This document shows, one piece after another, positions 54,183 to 64,000 of a stretch of DNA of 64,000 nucleotides. Under the pieces are notes generated by a model, which was not told where the DNA came from, searched no databases, and worked only from the letters and a program-made list of their open reading frames with translations. The translations under genes and the position numbers were made by a program. This stretch comes from Escherichia coli (GTDB lineage Bacteria; Pseudomonadota; Gammaproteobacteria; Enterobacterales; Enterobacteriaceae): the NCBI RefSeq assembly GCF_024502345.1, contig NZ_JALDNN010000001.1, one strand, 5' to 3'. Position 1 is the stretch's first letter, and each line of letters starts with the position of its first letter.

Positions 54183-55001
54183 ATGAAACTGACAACACAT
54201 CATCTACGGACAGGGGCCGCATTATTGCTGGCCGGAATTCTGCTGGCAGGTTGCGACCAGAGTAGCAGCGATGCAAAACACATTAAAGTTGGCGTTATAA
54301 ATGGCGCAGAACAAGATGTCGCGGAAGTCGCTAAAAAGGTGGCAAAAGAGAAATATGGCCTCGATGTTGAACTGGTAGGATTTAGCGGTTCGTTGCTACC
54401 GAACGATGCGACAAATCATGGCGAACTTGATGCGAATGTCTTCCAGCATCGACCCTTTCTTGAACAAGATAATCAGGCGCATGGTTATAAACTGGTAGCG
54501 GTGGGAAATACGTTTGTCTTCCCTATGGCGGGTTATTCCAAAAAAATCACAACCGTGGCGCAAATAAAAGAAGGCGCGACAGTGGCGATCCCCAACGACC
54601 CGACCAACCTTGGTCGCGCACTTTTACTGTTGCAAAAAGAGAAGCTAATTACTCTGAAAGAGGGAAAAGGGTTATTACCTACCGCGCTGGATATAACCGA
54701 TAATCCTCGTCATTTGCAGATTATGGAACTCGAGGGGGCGCAGCTTCCGCGCGTACTGGATGATCCCAAAGTTGATGTAGCGATTATCAGCACCACTTAC
54801 ATTCAGCAGACAGGGCTTTCTCCGGTGCACGACAGCGTATTTATTGAAGATAAGAATTCGCCGTATGTGAATATTTTGGTGGTACGGGAAGATAATAAGA
54901 ATGCAGAAAACGTGAAGGAATTTCTGCAATCTTATCAATCACCCGAAGTCGCTAAAGCGGCAGAAACCATTTTTAACGGTGGCGCGGTGCCTGGCTGGTA
55001 A
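54183..55001 (+). CDS. nlpA: lipoprotein 28 (methionine-binding family)
   Basis: 272-aa ORF with lipobox LLAGC and MetQ-like body. Confidence 0.9.
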   Translation: MKLTTHHLRTGAALLLAGILLAGCDQSSSDAKHIKVGVINGAEQDVAEVAKKVAKEKYGLDVELVGFSGSLLPNDATNHGELDANVFQHRPFLEQDNQAHGYKLVAVGNTFVFPMAGYSKKITTVAQIKEGATVAIPNDPTNLGRALLLLQKEKLITLKEGKGLLPTALDITDNPRHLQIMELEGAQLPRVLDDPKVDVAIISTTYIQQTGLSPVHDSVFIEDKNSPYVNILVVREDNKNAENVKEFLQSYQSPEVAKAAETIFNGGAVPGW

Positions 55002-55004
55002 TTC

Positions 55005-55928
55005 TCACTCATGCCGCGCCGGACGATTTATTTTTCTGGCGCGGCGACGGGAATCCATTGAAATCAAAATCACCGATGACAGAATCAGCAGCGTTCCCAG
55101 CCAGTCCGGTAATGTGAACGTGATCCCCAGCAACAGCAAAGAGAGTAGCGCGCTACTTAATGGTTCTGCACAGCTCAAAATGCTGGCTTTTGGACCGCCA
55201 ATTAATTGTGCTCCTTTCAGGTACAGACTAAATGTCAGGGATGTACCAATGACCACCAAATAAAAAAACGCCAGAATCAAACTGCCGTTAACGACAAAGT
55301 TTGTTCCTTGTCTGGCATAAAAAGGCAACAGAATCAGACCGCCAATCAGCATACTCCAGCCGACGACTGGTAACGTGCCATAGCGGGCAATTAGCGTTGA
55401 GGGATAGGTGGTATAGAATGCAGCAGCAAATGCCGAGGCAATGCCCCAGAACAACGCGGCAGGAGAGATCGATAATGACGTCGGATTACCGTGTGTCACC
55501 AATAAAAAAGTCCCGACCAGCGATGTCAAAATAGCGCAGAAAACCAGAATGCCCGGGCGCGATTTACGCACCAGTGAGAACCAGGCGACGATAATCGTCG
55601 GTGAGAGGAATTGCAGCACCGTTGCCGTGGCTGCGTTCGATTTTTCGATGGTTAGCAAAAAAGTGAGCTGTACAGTTAGCGCGCCAACCACGGAAAAAAT
55701 CAGCAGGCTAATGGCATCTTTATGATTGTTAATAATAGAAAAGATTTTATCGCCATGAACAAATGACAGCGTCAGTAGAATCAAACCGGCGAATATCAAA
55801 CGCGTCATAGTCAAAAACTGCGACGACATCTGGCTTTGCTCCATGATGTATTGCGCGCAGACCCCTGAACTTCCCCACAACACGGCGGCAATCAGAACGT
55901 TCAGCATCCCCTTTCTGGTGGAACCCAT
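55005..55928 (-). CDS. yicL: EamA/DMT-family transporter YicL
   Basis: 307-aa 10-TM ORF convergent with nlpA. Confidence 0.85.
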
Positions 55929-56563
55929 TTTTCCCTCTGCATACTGTTTTGTCGTTTATGTATGCAGGCATGATAGCAAAAATGGCGAGGATGGCTCTGT
56001 TTGCGCCACGCCGATTTTTCTTAGCCCAGACTGGTGAGCTAAATATCTTTAATAAACAGCAGGCAAATCATCGCAATACCCAACATCCCTATCGCCAGCC
56101 AGAACAACGCATGGTAGCTCCAGATTTCAACCATAATTCCGTCAACAGAGCCGGCGATAATCCAGCCGACGCGTGAAGTATTTGCATATAACGTTGTCGC
56201 AGAGCCTATTTTTTCAGGCATCAAGTCCTGAAAATAAAGCATGCCGATACCACAGAGAATACCAAGGAAGATGGCATTAAGAATTTGCAATTCCAGCTCA
56301 ACCGCCGGAGTCGTCGCCATGAGTACGCTGGCGTAAAAACACATTCCACTCACGATAGCAATGAGCATTAATAGTCGCTTGCCAATACGTTTCATGTAAT
56401 AGCCTGCGATTAACATCATCGGAATTTCCAGACCGGCAGCGATACCAATCATTTCTCCAGCCAGTTTATCGGTTAGATGCAGTTCATCAATAATAAATAG
56501 CGGCATATTTATCATGTAGAGATTATTCGCCGCCCACATCATTGAACAAACCACAAAAAGTAG

Positions 56564-57785
56564 CTGTAGATTCAATCTGTCAATGCAACACCCCTTTCAA
56601 TTATCTCTTTCGGTGTTTTGAACTTCAGTGTCTTTCTCGGTCTGTTGTTTAGCTGAGCAGCAACCAGATCTAGTTCATGTTGAGTATATTGGGCAAGACA
56701 TGTCTTTTTAGGAAAGTACTGCCGAATTAGCCCATTTGTGTTCTCATTTGTTCCCCGCTGCCAAGGACTCTGAGGATCGCAGAAGTAAACTTTAACGCCG
56801 GTGCTGACAGTAAATTCTAGATGTCTGGCCAGTTCCATTCCTCTGTCCCATGTCAGTGATTTTCTGAGTTCTGACGGTAAACTCAGGAATTTGTCGGTAA
56901 GAGCCTGATTTACTGAGACAGAATCTTTGCCCCTGAGTCTAAGGATGATCGTATAACGTGATTTTCGGTCTACAAGTGTGGCTATATGAGAGTTTTTTGT
57001 ACCTGAGACTAAATCGCCCTCCCAATGCCCCAGAGAGCGTCTGTTATCGATATTTCGGGAACGTTCGTGAATTGGTGTTCCGTTCACTATGTTAATCGTA
57101 CCTCTTTCGCCTTTGCGGGTATGACGCCTGCCATGGCGAAGGCTATGCGACCGTCGCAGATGCTGTATATTCAGGTGGTGTAGCGCTTCACGGCTACGAA
57201 AGTACAGCGTTTTATAAATTGTCTCAGGTGATATTCGCAGCGTTTTTTGACGTGGTTTTGTTCGCCTTAACCATCCTGATATTTGCTCTGGAGACCATTT
57301 CATCTCCAGCTTTTCCAGAACAAGCTTTCGCAATGGTAAATTTTGATCCAGTAAGCACGGTTTTGGCCTTTTCGCCATTCTGTTGGCTCGGTTATTAGCA
57401 TCAACAGCTTTGTAATAGCGTCTGCCCCGATTACGCTGAACTTCACGTGAGATCGTCGAAGGACTGCGATTCAGCGCAGTAGCTATCGCACGAATGCTCA
57501 TTTTGGCTGACAAACCAGCTCGTATCTCCTCGCGCTCAGACAGTGTCAGGTGAGCTACAGCCCGCTTACGCTCATGGGGTTTTATGCCGCCAGTATCCCT
57601 TAACATAGTGAAGATCGTTCCGGGTTTTGAACCCAGGATATTCGCTATTTCACTGAAGCCTGTTCCGTTCTTCCATAGTTCAAAAACAGAGGCTTTTTCC
57701 TCTGCTGTAAATGTTCGTCTCATTCAAAAAACCTCCGCAACCCCATGTTTTCACATAACTGTTGCGTTGACCAATTGAATCTACA
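56564..57785 (-). mobile_element. IS30 insertion sequence (complete, about 1.22 kb)
   Basis: Terminal inverted repeats (tgtagattcaatctgtcaatgcaacacccc at one end, tgtagattcaattggtcaacgcaacagttatgtgaaaacatgggg in reverse complement at the other) flanked by a 2-bp direct repeat gc. Confidence 0.9.
56572..57723 (-). CDS. insI: IS30 transposase
   Basis: 383-aa ORF with N-terminal HTH and C-terminal DDE integrase fold, fills the IS30 body. Confidence 0.9.
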   Translation of the reverse strand: MRRTFTAEEKASVFELWKNGTGFSEIANILGSKPGTIFTMLRDTGGIKPHERKRAVAHLTLSEREEIRAGLSAKMSIRAIATALNRSPSTISREVQRNRGRRYYKAVDANNRANRMAKRPKPCLLDQNLPLRKLVLEKLEMKWSPEQISGWLRRTKPRQKTLRISPETIYKTLYFRSREALHHLNIQHLRRSHSLRHGRRHTRKGERGTINIVNGTPIHERSRNIDNRRSLGHWEGDLVSGTKNSHIATLVDRKSRYTIILRLRGKDSVSVNQALTDKFLSLPSELRKSLTWDRGMELARHLEFTVSTGVKVYFCDPQSPWQRGTNENTNGLIRQYFPKKTCLAQYTQHELDLVAAQLNNRPRKTLKFKTPKEIIERGVALTD

Positions 57786-58882
57786 GCCGCGTATCTCGCT
57801 TTCTATGGATGGAGGGTAAAATTTCTACGGGTTGGGTAACGACAGGAATATTTCTTTGTATTGATGGCAAAAACAACCAGACTATCAGCCCGCAAACAAC
57901 AAATGCGATGGCAGCGGTGAGATACATCACTTTAAAACTAAATCCCATTGCCAGTTCATAAGCGAGCGGTGGCCCGATAACCCAGGCAAGCGAGATCTGA
58001 GCACGTAAAAATGTACTGAACATGACCGTCTCACGGCCTGTTCTATCGGCGTGTTCACGGGCGAGGGCGAACATTTGCGGGTTTGCGGTGGAAGCAAAAC
58101 TACTCAGAAGTACGCCCGTTGAGAGGAGAATGAAGTAGTTGCGATTCCACGCAAAAAGCGTGCAGGCCAGCACTCCAAATAAGCAACATAGCAGAATCAG
58201 TAATTTACGGTCGCCTTGTTTATCGGAGTGCCTTGCCAGAAATTGACTGACCAGAATTCCCATAATAGCGCTACCGGTGAAGAAAAAACCTACCATTATA
58301 GGACGGGCTTTCAGTTCATCTGCGAGGAATATACTTAGGGTAGGAGTCTGAAGAGCGCCCGCAATACCCGTCAGAAAGGCGACAAGTAAAAATGCCGCGG
58401 CAGTGAGATCAAGTATTTTTGATGGAGTGGTAGCCGTTTTTTGCATTCTTCTGAATCACCGGGCGAAAAAATATAACTGAGTTACAAATAAGTACCAGTC
58501 GAATGAGTATTGTATTAAGAATTTTTGAGTATCGCTGATACAACCAGAAAGCAATGCTAGCGCAATATTATAGGGCCAGCAATTGAGATTATTAGCAAAA
58601 GCATGTTAAGAATTAATTACCGAATTTATATATTAATTATAGTAAGGCAATGAGCTATTTTTGATAGTAAAAATAAAACAAGTTGATTTGATATATTAAA
58701 TGAACAAATTAATCTTGATGGCAGTCTGATTATTGGTGAAGTTTATAGTCAGTTTTTTTCGCCAGCGGTTAAAGAAATAGAATAATCGTATAAAAAAGGG
58801 TGTTCTGGGGCGAGTAAAACAACATCTTCACCTTAATGGCGATACAGTTGGCTGAGAGTCAGCAGGGGGGCAAATCACCTGC

Positions 58883-59003
58883 AAATAAACACGGCGCATA
58901 CTGGCGTGAATATCGCGGATGCGTTCGAGGACAGAAGAACCGACAGGCGGATTCTTCAGCCGCTCATCGTCCATCACAAAACCTTAGACCAGGTATTCCT
59001 GAA
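58883..59003 (-). pseudogene. fragment of a RhuM-family gene (paralogous remnant)
   Basis: About 120 bp with clear nucleotide similarity to 59745-59893 of the intact gene, including a 34-nt identical core; carries a deletion and an in-frame stop. Confidence 0.55.
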
Positions 59004-59214
59004 GCCGATTGAATATTGAGCAGTAGAAAATATCTGGATTGACAGTATTACAAGGGGTTGGAGAACGTCAGGAGAGGCATTTTGGCGATCACAGGAGTCG
59101 CATTCAGCGGCTTGATCTGTTGAATTTAGTGGTTTTTATCGTGTTGGATTTTTGTTGGTGCCCCCTATTATGCCCCCAAATGATTTTGCTTGTGGTGGTT
59201 ATAGGCATTCAGAG

Positions 59215-60252
59215 CTACTTTTTAGGCTCTGTTTTCCATTGTAGCAAACCGGCGATATCCTTCTCACCTTCGGCTTCTTTTAAGCGCCGTTGTTGTTCAG
59301 CAAACTGACCATACTCCGCCTGCGCTTTTTCATCGGCCATTTTCTTACTGATTTTACCTGCGCCTTGCAAAACCTCACGGTCGTTAAATTGCAGGAACTG
59401 ATCCAGCTTATCCTGCCAGTCGCGTAAAAAGACCTGCTGACGACGACGGGCCTGATCCTCGGCAAAATCCAGCCACATGTTAACTACGCGGTTAAGCTCG
59501 CTGACTTCATCCTGAGTGAGATAATTTTTTGCCACCGTCACGTCACCCTTACGCACCTCTTCACCTTTATAGCTGGTCAGCCCCATATGTGGCTGGCTGG
59601 CGTCAGCACGCAGATGAATGAGTTCAGCGGCGGTATGTCCGGTACAGGCAAAATGTAACTTGTTCTGGATGGTTTGAAAAAACTGCGTGGTTTCTTTCAG
59701 TGATGGTTGATAGTCGGCGGCTAACGCAAAGATCTCTCGCACCCGTAAATAAACCCGACGTTCGCTGGCGCGAATATCGCGGATACGCTCCAGCATCTCA
59801 TCGAAATAGTCGGGCACAGCCGATGAACCCACGGGCGGGTTCTTCAGCCGCTCATCGTCCATCACAAAACCTTTGATCAGGTATTCCTGGAGCGTCTGGG
59901 TTGCCCACTGGCGGAACTGCGTGCCGCGAGGGGAGCGAACGCGGTAGCCGACAGCAAGAATAACAGGCAGGCTGTAGTGAAGCCTGTTGCGGCTTACCTG
60001 ACGGCCACCTTCCTGTTGAACTTGTAAGTAAGACTTACAGGTTGCGTTTTGTTCAAGTTCGCCTTCTTCATAGATCGCTTTAATGTGCTGTGTAACTGCC
60101 TGGGGAGTGATCTGATAAAGGTTTGCGATGGTTGCCTGAGGGAGCCATAGTGTCTCTTGCTCAAAGCGGCATTCAACACGAACTTCACCGTCATCGCTGG
60201 CAAACATAACAAATTCGCCTGCCGGGGATTGGGTTAAGTATTTATCTGTCAT
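59215..60252 (-). CDS. RhuM-family protein
   Basis: 345-aa ORF (MTDKYLTQS...) with RhuM-family conserved blocks (VISVGYRV-like, RGTQFRQWATQ, LIKGF..DDERLK). Confidence 0.65.
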   Translation of the reverse strand: MTDKYLTQSPAGEFVMFASDDGEVRVECRFEQETLWLPQATIANLYQITPQAVTQHIKAIYEEGELEQNATCKSYLQVQQEGGRQVSRNRLHYSLPVILAVGYRVRSPRGTQFRQWATQTLQEYLIKGFVMDDERLKNPPVGSSAVPDYFDEMLERIRDIRASERRVYLRVREIFALAADYQPSLKETTQFFQTIQNKLHFACTGHTAAELIHLRADASQPHMGLTSYKGEEVRKGDVTVAKNYLTQDEVSELNRVVNMWLDFAEDQARRRQQVFLRDWQDKLDQFLQFNDREVLQGAGKISKKMADEKAQAEYGQFAEQQRRLKEAEGEKDIAGLLQWKTEPKK

Positions 60253-60339
60253 GCCGTCTCCGCTTATATCTGACTCGCAATGCTGTAATCCGCTTAGTAT
60301 GCCAGAAATTCTTGGTGAAGCTTATTACGCAGATAGCGT

Positions 60340-61173
60340 TTATTTTGCGGGCAGCGCTCCCGGATAATGCTTTGCCACAATGTCATTCATCTTCTCCACC
60401 AGGTCCAGACGCTTAAACGTGATATGCCCGTTGCCTTTCTGAAAGTAGCGAATGGTGAACATATCGTCTTTAAAGACCTGTTGATGCGGGTTATCGCGAA
60501 CAAAATTCATAAATCGGATAGAGACATCATGCCGGTTGTCAGGAATGGTTTTGCCATCCAGCAGGTAAAGCATCCGTTCCAGATCGGCGAGCTGATCGCG
60601 CCGCCAGCCCCAGTTCAGACTGAAGCCCCATCTGTCATGCTTCACCAGATTGTTGACGATAATCTTCTTACCGAAGTAACAGGGATTATTGGTTTTGTAG
60701 TCCCAGCTTAACCCTTTAAATACATTGATAATCCCACGTTCGAAAACATCCTGTTTATTGTGGTGGAGTTGTTCAAAGGTACTTAGGATGTTGGCTTCAC
60801 TGATGGCCGGAAGATCGCCCTCTTCGAGGTTTTTAGCCCACTGGCTGCGGGCTTCGGCATCCATCAAGGTCAACATCCCGGACTTCAGCATGAGATCGCG
60901 CCAGATACTGCGATCGATATTGCAGGTAATCACCGGCATCGCTTTATCGACTGGTTGCATCAGCCAGCAGTCAAAGGAATGGCCCTGTCGCATCGCCCAA
61001 TGCTCCGCCACATCACCACCGATGCTGGAGGTTAGCCGTGAGATATCATCAAGCTTATGGATCAGGATTTCTATCAGGCTCAGCGCAGCATCACGCCCTG
61101 TGACGATGCGTTCTATACTGGTTGAGCAAATTAGCTCATTATGATCGGTTAAAACTTCAGCTTCTGTTTGCAT
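60340..61173 (-). CDS. DUF4942-like protein
   Basis: 277-aa ORF from ATG 61171-61173 (MQTEAEVLTDHNE...); family call from memory of proteins encoded downstream of CbtA-family toxins. Confidence 0.5.
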   Translation of the reverse strand: MQTEAEVLTDHNELICSTSIERIVTGRDAALSLIEILIHKLDDISRLTSSIGGDVAEHWAMRQGHSFDCWLMQPVDKAMPVITCNIDRSIWRDLMLKSGMLTLMDAEARSQWAKNLEEGDLPAISEANILSTFEQLHHNKQDVFERGIINVFKGLSWDYKTNNPCYFGKKIIVNNLVKHDRWGFSLNWGWRRDQLADLERMLYLLDGKTIPDNRHDVSIRFMNFVRDNPHQQVFKDDMFTIRYFQKGNGHITFKRLDLVEKMNDIVAKHYPGALPAK

Positions 61174-61287
61174 GATATTTTGTCCGTAAAAAGCAAACAC
61201 GCCCGCCGGGAGTGGCAGGCGCATTATGCAATGAGTAAATAAGGAAGACAGATCGGGAATGTAATTCGGGAAGGAGGCTCGCAAGAT

Positions 61288-61620
61288 TCAGCGTGTCGAA
61301 AGATTATGGCCTTGTCGTAACAACCCCATTGCCTGTCGCGCCCGCAAAATGTCTACAGCCCGCAGATAAGGCGATTGTTCCTGCCAGCTAAATCCTTTGC
61401 GATCGATGCGAACGAGTTCGTATTTTTCCACCAGAAAGTTCACGGCATCGGCAAGAGTAACGCCTGCGTTGATATGTTCCTGAATGACTGTTTCATCGCA
61501 GAATGGCGTGTCACTCAGGGCCAGGCCATAGTGTTGTGCAAGTAGACGGGTCAGTAACATCTGCCAGACGGCCACAGGCGACGGGCATGGCTTCGCTATG
61601 TGTGCGTCCTCCTTTCGCAT
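61288..61620 (-). CDS. CbtA/YeeV-family toxin homolog with atypical N-terminus, no adjacent antitoxin gene
   Basis: 110-aa ORF whose body ([28 protein letters not shown]...AVNFLVEKY...DILRAR) aligns to the YeeV/YkfI/YpjF family; first 12 residues differ and overlap the upstream ORF. Confidence 0.65.
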
Positions 61621-62329
61621 TGCGCCCGTTCAGACCACCTTTAATCAGGTTCTCCTGAATGCGCTGATAGGTTGTCCAGAGGTCACCGGACTCATCCTGC
61701 CAGCGACGGGGAGCCAGTAGCTGAGATTCCGTCACCGGCTGATGCTCTTCGCCAAAACGATACGTCAGCGCAGCTTGCGCCAGCGCCGCCTGTGCTGGTG
61801 GAGGTAGCATGAGTGACTGCATGGCATCGCGCTTCTCTTCTACGCGGTCAAATATCCCCAGCACTTCGTAAGCCCCTTCAATGACCTTCTCTACTACGTT
61901 GCCTTTATGCGGGACACGCACCTCCCCGAACGACTCGCCGCAAATCAACCCATTTTGGCAAACAGATCTGAATAAACCCGGCAGCATTTGATATGAACTG
62001 GAGCCGTCATGGCTGTTAAGCAGGATTATTTCTGGCACTTGTTTGCCAGTAATCTGGCCTTCTCGGCGTAGGCGCAGCATGTGTTTGGTGTGCTCACGCT
62101 TGCTCTGGTCCCGCACTCGGGTCTGGCAGGCAAAGAACGGTTGAAAGCCTTCACGCTTCAGGTTATCGAGCAGAGTGATTGTCGGAATGTAGGTATAGCG
62201 GTCACTGCGGGATTCATGTTTGTCTTCGCTGAAGACGCTGGGCACATAGTGCGCCAGCTCCTCGCGGGTTAACGGGCGGTCACGGCGCACAAGATTGGTA
62301 GCACCAAAACGGCTGGCTAAACGGGTCAT
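61511..62329 (-). CDS. DUF932-like protein (YfjQ/YafZ-like), C-terminus overlapping the toxin ORF
   Basis: 272-aa ORF from ATG 62327-62329 (MTRLASRFG...) with ggag RBS; last 37 codons overlap the toxin ORF in another frame. Confidence 0.55.
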
Positions 62330-62399
62330 AGGCGACTCCTTTAAAAATGGGCATAAAAAAGCCACCCCGAAGGATGGCCTGGATTGAAAGGCTGGATTA

Positions 62400-62849
62400 T
62401 TAAGGTGAAACAGAAGGGTGTATCTGCGATGCAGTCTTTTCTGAATCTGGTATCGGCAATGCAGATAGTTCGGCAGGACTAAGCTTTCCTGCGCGGTAAA
62501 GTTGCAGTTTCACCAGAATCGGCGCTTTTTGCGACTGAAGGTAACTCAGGCACCATTCCCGCTTCAGGACTATCCTGACCGGGGCAGGCAAAAGCTCATA
62601 TGCTTTGCTAAAAACGACTTCAACAAAAGCATCATCACTCAGTTTATCCTCGGCAATATTCAACAGACCATTGATGACAATATTTTCCAGTAACAGCCTG
62701 TATTTGTCAGAACCCGTTACCGAAGCTTTAACCGTGTTTTCCGGTAAGTGTTCAGAAGATGTGTCATGATTTTCTGTGTGTGCTTTTCTGCGTGAGAAAT
62801 TCAGCTTTTCTGTAAGGCTACGAAATTTTCCTGTGCTATTTTCAGACAT
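62400..62849 (-). CDS. hypothetical protein (149 aa)
   Basis: ORF from ATG 62847-62849 (MSENSTGKF...) with agga RBS about 9 nt upstream; co-oriented 70 bp upstream of the DUF932-like gene; no family recognised. Confidence 0.45.
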   Translation of the reverse strand: MSENSTGKFRSLTEKLNFSRRKAHTENHDTSSEHLPENTVKASVTGSDKYRLLLENIVINGLLNIAEDKLSDDAFVEVVFSKAYELLPAPVRIVLKREWCLSYLQSQKAPILVKLQLYRAGKLSPAELSALPIPDSEKTASQIHPSVSP

Positions 62850-63092
62850 CGTAATTTTATCCTGTGGCCTCCGCGTCTTGCCATCAGGCAAGTACGGCGA
62901 GTTTTTTTATCGCTTTAATCAGGCTAAAGGTGGTCAAACCTGCACCTAGAGCCCTGACCGTGACCGAATGGCTTCGCATCAACGTAACCCCCATTACGCA
63001 CAGGACAAGTTGCCACGTACAATCAGGCCATGGGGGGTCATTACCCGGCATGTCCGTAACCACTTCGCTTTGACTATGCACGGAAAACACCT

Positions 63093-63736
63093 CTACTTGT
63101 AGCCATTAGGGAGCCACTGGCCCTGTTTGCGAATATCAGTAATAATGCCCCCCTCTTTGACCGAAATGGTACGCCAGCTTGGTTCTTTGCTGGATGCATT
63201 CCCATAGGTATACCCGACAGTCATTGTCAGGTTTTCGCCTGAAGTTGTGGTGAGATCAGCCTCATACTTAGCTTCGGTATTTTGTTTGCGAATAAAACGC
63301 ACGGTGTTGATTGCAGAACAGCGAATACTGCTTTTCGCATATTCAAAGGAATTGTTAGCCATTTGGCATCCGTCGTTTTTAATTTCATCCGTCAGGTTTG
63401 CAGAAACATTAAAGTTCTTAGGTACAGGGGCAAATTTAGCCATGTCGTTTCGCATAGTCGGTGGATCTGTCTGAAGCACAAGATAAACAGGACAATCTGA
63501 TTTGCCTACTTCACACGCTTTTGCCACGTAATCACGTACTGGCCATCCAGCATTACCGAAATATTCCGCACCACTTTCATCTTTGCATTGTGACCAGGTA
63601 GCTTTTTTCCCCATCATAATGCCGTCTACCAGCACACAGGTGACGGCTTTTACAGGCTCACCATCCCACCGGACTGCATCAAAGGGCTGAATGCCTGTAT
63701 GGTTCACGTCAAGCGTGTAGGCCTGTGGATTCCTAG
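63093..63736 (-). pseudogene. hypothetical protein, 5' end truncated by IS5
   Basis: Reading frame open from the IS5 junction to stop at 63093; the first 23 residues of the track ORF are encoded by the IS5 terminus; no family recognised. Confidence 0.45.

Positions 63737-64000
<264 letters not shown>

Follow-up and report, generated by a model that had tools for sequence, protein, structure and literature searches.

The setC gene in the stretch of Escherichia coli DNA analysed here (the window, 64 kb in length) is interrupted by a complete copy of IS30. The arrangement very likely arose by IS30 transposition along its normal route into a setC target of the 'hot-spot' type, an event that split SetC and probably inactivated it.

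Structure of the insertion

The interrupted gene lies on the minus strand and runs from an ATG at 58446 to a stop codon at 56039-56041, so the limits given in the initial annotation (56039-58446) are exact. The insertion and its surroundings comprise the following features.

56039..56564, minus strand: setC 3' fragment, codons 221-394 and stop, with neither its own promoter nor a good start
56563..56564: target-site duplication, copy 1, GC
56565..57785, minus strand, same orientation as setC: complete IS30, 1221 bp (direct reading and script)
56565..56590, plus strand: IRR, TGTAGATTCAATCTGTCAATGCAACA, adjoining the setC 3' fragment (inverted-repeat search)
56583-56578, minus strand: TTGACA within IRR, facing outward
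56572..57723, minus strand: IS30 transposase gene, insI-type, 383 aa, intact, the sole long ORF of the element
57760..57785, minus strand: IRL, TGTAGATTCAATTGGTCAACGCAACA, adjoining the setC 5' fragment (inverted-repeat search)
57786..57787: target-site duplication, copy 2, GC
57781..58446, minus strand: setC 5' fragment, an ORF of 221 aa that covers the N-terminal half and most of the central loop

Read on the plus strand, the element opens with TGTAGATTCAATCTGTCAATGCAACA and closes with TGTTGCGTTGACCAATTGAATCTACA. Its terminal repeats are 26 bp long and imperfect, with 23 of the 26 positions complementary. A repeat finder returned arms of 28 nt with 89% complementarity, the repeats being lengthened by the GC duplication on either side, itself a palindrome. 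As had been claimed at the outset, the IS30 is complete: both ends are present, the transposase is intact, and 1219 of 1221 nt (99.8%) match IS30A of MG1655, the substitutions being 843 G>C and 1046 T>C. The transposase differs from MG1655 InsI1 by one amino acid (V261L) and scores 276 bits against NF033563, the NCBIfam model for IS30 transposases (cut-off 80, E = 3e-82). In its length, terminal repeats, DDE-type ORF, 2-bp duplication and near-identity to the type element, the insertion is a member of the IS30 family. With its ORF intact and both ends in place, the copy in setC is predicted to be active in transposition. A search for a second pair of IS30 ends across the 64-kb window returned the element's own ends only.

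The break falls after nucleotide 661 of setC and leaves fragments of 661 and 526 nt. When IS30 and one GC were removed by script, an ORF of 1185 nt and 394 aa without internal stops was obtained, whereas the frame was broken when both copies of GC were retained. The two halves are thus intact and in register, as first proposed, and join into a continuous SetC. The proposed GC target duplication is likewise seen, with GC on both sides of the element versus a single GC in the intact allele.

The restored protein scores 645 bits against TIGR00899 (SET family, cut-off 522) and 670 bits against the SetB equivalog NF011587, below the cut-off of 693 for that model. From K-12 SetC (b3659) it differs by 8 nt and 2 of 394 aa (T213I, T255A). 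On these comparisons the restored protein is identified as SetC, a predicted MFS sugar efflux transporter of the SET family. The neighbouring genes, yicL (55005..55928) and nlpA (54183..55001), are arranged as in K-12.

Consequences for SetC

At the upstream junction, setC reads ...ACG CGG C|TG TAG. The terminal TGTAG of IS30 completes codon 221 (Leu, as in native SetC) and supplies the TAG stop. A hydropathy scan shows hydrophobic blocks up to about residue 200 and again from about residue 254; the break, at IQRNIPVVTQPVEILPSIHRKRDTR|LLFVV, lies in the hydrophilic stretch between them. A split in the central loop points to loss of transport, and SetC is most likely non-functional in this strain. 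In K-12, setC has been linked to arabinose efflux: its deletion raises intracellular arabinose, and its over-expression lowers intracellular arabinose and is toxic (PMC3429515). Given this published role, a mild sugar-retention phenotype would be expected.

We also considered the downstream half. Mechanically, an ORF can be opened at a TTG within IRR (56575); this TTG overlaps the transposase TGA (TTGA) and is in frame with the setC 3' half. It has no obvious ribosome-binding site, and its expression appears unlikely. A promoter scan for an outward hybrid promoter at the IRR end, in which TTGACA would serve as the -35 element and the flank would provide the -10 element toward the setC 3' half and yicL, found none; candidate -10 hexamers in the flank are poor. 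LacY can be split and still work as a transporter. By analogy, and as no more than speculation, the halves of SetC, cut exactly in the central loop, might reassemble into a working split transporter, the C-terminal half being made from the TTG.

Comparison with K-12 and other complete genomes

In MG1655, setC (yicK, b3659; 3836953..3838137) is uninterrupted and aligns end to end with the restored gene. The window thus differs from K-12 at this locus, as the initial annotation proposed, and the idea that reference K-12 carries the same insertion is rejected, given the intact annotation of its setC and the full-length alignment.

We then looked for the insertion among 5426 complete RefSeq E. coli genomes. 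Neither the setC-IRR junction of the window nor the opposite-orientation junction, in which IRR adjoins the setC 5' fragment, was found in any of them. Of the 5426 genomes, 3752 have the empty site, and in four (H31-H34) the intact setC matches the empty site reconstructed from the window with 100% identity across 400 nt. This identity indicates a clean insertion that left the site otherwise unchanged, in keeping with the simple event originally described. The event had also been described as recent. Here too the data agree: both halves of the gene are undecayed, and the exact intact protein is encoded on at least 1000 public contigs. In about 31% of the complete genomes this part of setC is without a match, in keeping with the gene being dispensable.

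Of the eight nucleotide differences from K-12 setC, five fall no more than 25 nt from the point of insertion. The clustered variants span nt 638-675 of the gene (about 57772-57809 and 56551-56564 in the window). They also occur in genomes with the empty site and hence are older than the insertion.

The 25 kb of conserved backbone at 31565-56564, which includes the uhp, ilvBN and adeD region, has a best match of 99.1% among the 5426 complete genomes. The source lineage is thus poorly represented among them, and this leaves no near-isogenic genome with an empty site by which the insertion could be dated.

On the other side of setC, positions 58447-64000 are occupied by an island of the rhuM / DUF4942 / CbtA type that directly adjoins the gene. 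K-12 has no island in its selC-to-setC interval, only selC and yicT. No tRNA gene, hence no selC, was found across the 64-kb window, from which it follows that the island continues past the window end. At 61597/61598, the window lacks 1299 nt that are kept in two otherwise 100% identical metagenome contigs (L085:9646-10944 and L003:1550-2848). The deletion has 2 bp of microhomology (TA) at its ends. Lost with it are radC, a DUF987 gene and the cbeA (yeeU-type) antitoxin gene, together with the 3' end of a DUF932 gene and the first ~30 nt of the cbtA toxin gene.

Match of the setC site to IS30 target preference

IS30 inserts either into its own inverted repeats or into near-palindromic 'hot-spot' sequences, attacking the target with a stagger of 2 bp (PMC9333248). 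To score the setC site, we built a target model from IS30 junctions. Genome, viral and metagenome collections were scanned with the IRL 26-mer, and the junctions of MG1655 IS30A and the lambda LHS site were added. The scan of genome contigs contributed 15 stretches, informative on target sites rather than on setC. The setC site was left out of the model, and so were the top matches from the junction search of the complete genomes, which reach 10 to 17 nt into the setC flank and had been selected for their similarity to the site. A 24-bp consensus for IS30 hot spots was reportedly put forward by Olasz in 1998. In our model the half-site pattern, read toward the duplication, is roughly AAA(G/A)N(A/G)(C/G)GCN. 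The two half-sites in setC are as follows.

56549..56564, plus strand: left half of the IS30 target, AACCACAAAAAGTA[GC], 6.8 to 7.5 bits (target model)
57786..57801, plus strand: right half of the IS30 target, [GC]CGCGTATCTCGCTT, 5.8 to 7.5 bits (target model)

Among the 62,777 positions scored in the window, the setC site comes 3rd to 6th (z about 3.7 to 4.0), a rank that is indicative only, as the model is small (77 unique half-sites) and dominated by IS3-family sites. According to the model, then, the setC site matches the IS30 target preference and would be a target of the hot-spot type. The K-12 allele, which carries A>G at position -9, has a right half-site of 2.4 to 3.0 bits; its whole site scores 4.3 to 5.4 bits lower than that of the window and would, again as an indication, rank 36th to 104th. 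A gap of 4 to 5 bits in the model amounts to roughly 20- to 40-fold. These scores suggest that the setC allele of the window is more susceptible to IS30 than the K-12 allele.

In the metagenome sample (L059-L178), about 84 of the 119 IS30 IRL junctions fall at one homologous IS3-family (IS911-like) site, ...ATATTAAAAAAGGCT[AC]CGCGCTCTTGATGTC. IS30 enters this site in both orientations and, among the sampled junctions, uses it far more often than any other.

The same insertion in other assemblies

Other assemblies share the setC::IS30 insertion with this strain. By exact look-up, the truncated product of 221 aa, recorded as KUH14565.1, was traced to public draft genomes and metagenome assemblies, on 28 contigs. 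Two of these (L003 and L085) carry the junction of the window with flanks 99.95% to 100% identical to it. Four more (L002, L005, L006 and L007) share that junction but differ on the selC side, where the contexts include another island, arsenic-resistance genes or the lack of any island. The other junction, between IRR and the setC 3' fragment, is present on four further gut-metagenome contigs (L179-L182). In L004 and nine similar contigs, IS30 sits at the same dinucleotide but is reversed, such that its IRR end adjoins the setC 5' fragment. Public samples with the insertion in one orientation or the other include GCA_050029375.1, GCA_050022275.1, the ERZ272xxxxx samples and SRR10681909. The presence of IS30 in both orientations at one dinucleotide is most simply explained by at least two independent insertions, and we conclude that the site has probably been hit at least twice. 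The two orientations may alternatively derive from in-place inversion of a single insertion.

How many events lie behind the same-orientation copies is a separate matter. The setC 5' fragment and 400 nt upstream of it are identical in L002, L003, L005, L006 and L085; L002 shares the 843C variant of IS30 with the window; and the carriers diverge only further upstream of setC, near the island end. Judged by this shared haplotype, the same-orientation copies may descend from one event. A stronger version holds that one old insertion was inherited by a lineage and that the differing upstream contexts reflect later turnover of islands at selC. The same three observations speak for this account, which we regard as possible though doubtful. 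The reversed elements of the L004 type share the haplotype and yet call for a second event, the gene halves are undecayed and encode a protein identical to that of the intact allele on at least 1000 contigs, and the insertion occurs in none of the complete genomes, all of which speaks against this account.

Selection, and not target preference, could also underlie the recurrence: being without SetC might be useful in the gut, with independent knock-outs accumulating. The two orientations of IS30 are in favour of this account, as is an IS10-type end, CTGATGAATCCCCTAATGATTTTGGTA, found at the same codon of a K-12-like setC allele in L008 (6640-6689; contig from SRR7213657), the truncated 221-aa product of which is identical to that of the window. 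The effects of setC dosage on arabinose (PMC3429515) and the roughly 31% of complete genomes with no match to this part of the gene point the same way. The L008 coincidence is weak evidence, however, as the look-up itself demanded truncation at exactly codon 221. Moreover, the IS30 insertions share the exact dinucleotide. Such precision is expected of target specificity, whereas knock-outs favoured by selection would be spread over the gene. The disrupted form is also rare (28 contigs versus at least 1000 with the identical intact allele, and 0 of 5426 complete genomes). We therefore consider selection an improbable cause of the recurrence.

Finally, IS elements are a classic source of misassembly and the junction is in no complete RefSeq E. 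coli genome, but misplacement of a repeated IS30 inside setC can practically be dismissed, as both junctions and the 2-bp duplication recur independently in several assemblies from different assemblers, the IRL side in L085 and L003 and the IRR side in L179-L182.

Proposed origin and significance

Of these readings, transposition by the normal route into a hot-spot type target accounts best for the data. Following published IS30 work, a circular or dimeric intermediate with an IR-IR junction would have integrated into setC, with cuts staggered by 2 bp giving rise to the GC duplication. The target is near-palindromic, of A-rich / GC-core character, and resembles the favourite natural targets of IS30; in this allele it was probably hit at least twice independently. 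The insertion splits the 12-helix MFS transporter in its central cytoplasmic loop, leaving a 221-aa N-terminal half ended by the IS terminus and a C-terminal half predicted to be promoterless. Given that setC is dispensable, the event was probably neutral or nearly so.

A bolder extension is conceivable. The window allele, and not that of K-12, might be a true chromosomal hot spot for IS30, with a few polymorphisms of synonymous scale beside the GC core mimicking the IS3-family target, and repeated SetC knock-outs might be kept because loss of the exporter (of arabinose or other sugars) helps in the gut. We consider this improbable as a whole.

In terms of the normal-route reading, a known element has entered a dispensable gene at a preferred target, and this is an ordinary event; no open question hangs on it. 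A literature search for setC together with IS30 returned a single match, to an unrelated 'setC' of SGI1/IncA/C. For annotation, setC should be labelled a pseudogene in this strain. The setC-IS30 junction can serve, by PCR or as a k-mer, as a specific marker of a lineage that occurs in human gut metagenomes. The case may also serve as a small illustration of how an insertion sequence with target specificity can come to prefer an allele through a handful of base changes in coding DNA.

Comparison with known IS30 insertions

The copy described here and IS30A of K-12 (CP4-6, insI1, b0256) have in common the length of 1221 bp, the 26-bp repeats, the 383-aa transposase and the 2-bp target duplication. 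They differ in location: IS30A of K-12 sits within IS911, and the present copy sits within setC. A 2-bp duplication is likewise common to hot-spot targets in general and the setC site. The lambda LHS site and the IS911/IS3-family site occupied by IS30A are, like the setC site, near-palindromic, with A-runs 6 to 10 bp to either side of a G/C-rich core. The likeness can be seen by setting a hot-spot example, GCGAAGTACGCC[GC]GGCTTTTTTTAATA, against the setC target, GCGAGATACGCG[GC]TACTTTTTGTGGTT. In the model, the setC half-sites score about 6 to 7.5 bits versus 10 to 15 bits for the best IS3-family half-sites. Whereas the IS3-family targets belong to other mobile elements, the target in setC is a chromosomal coding sequence.
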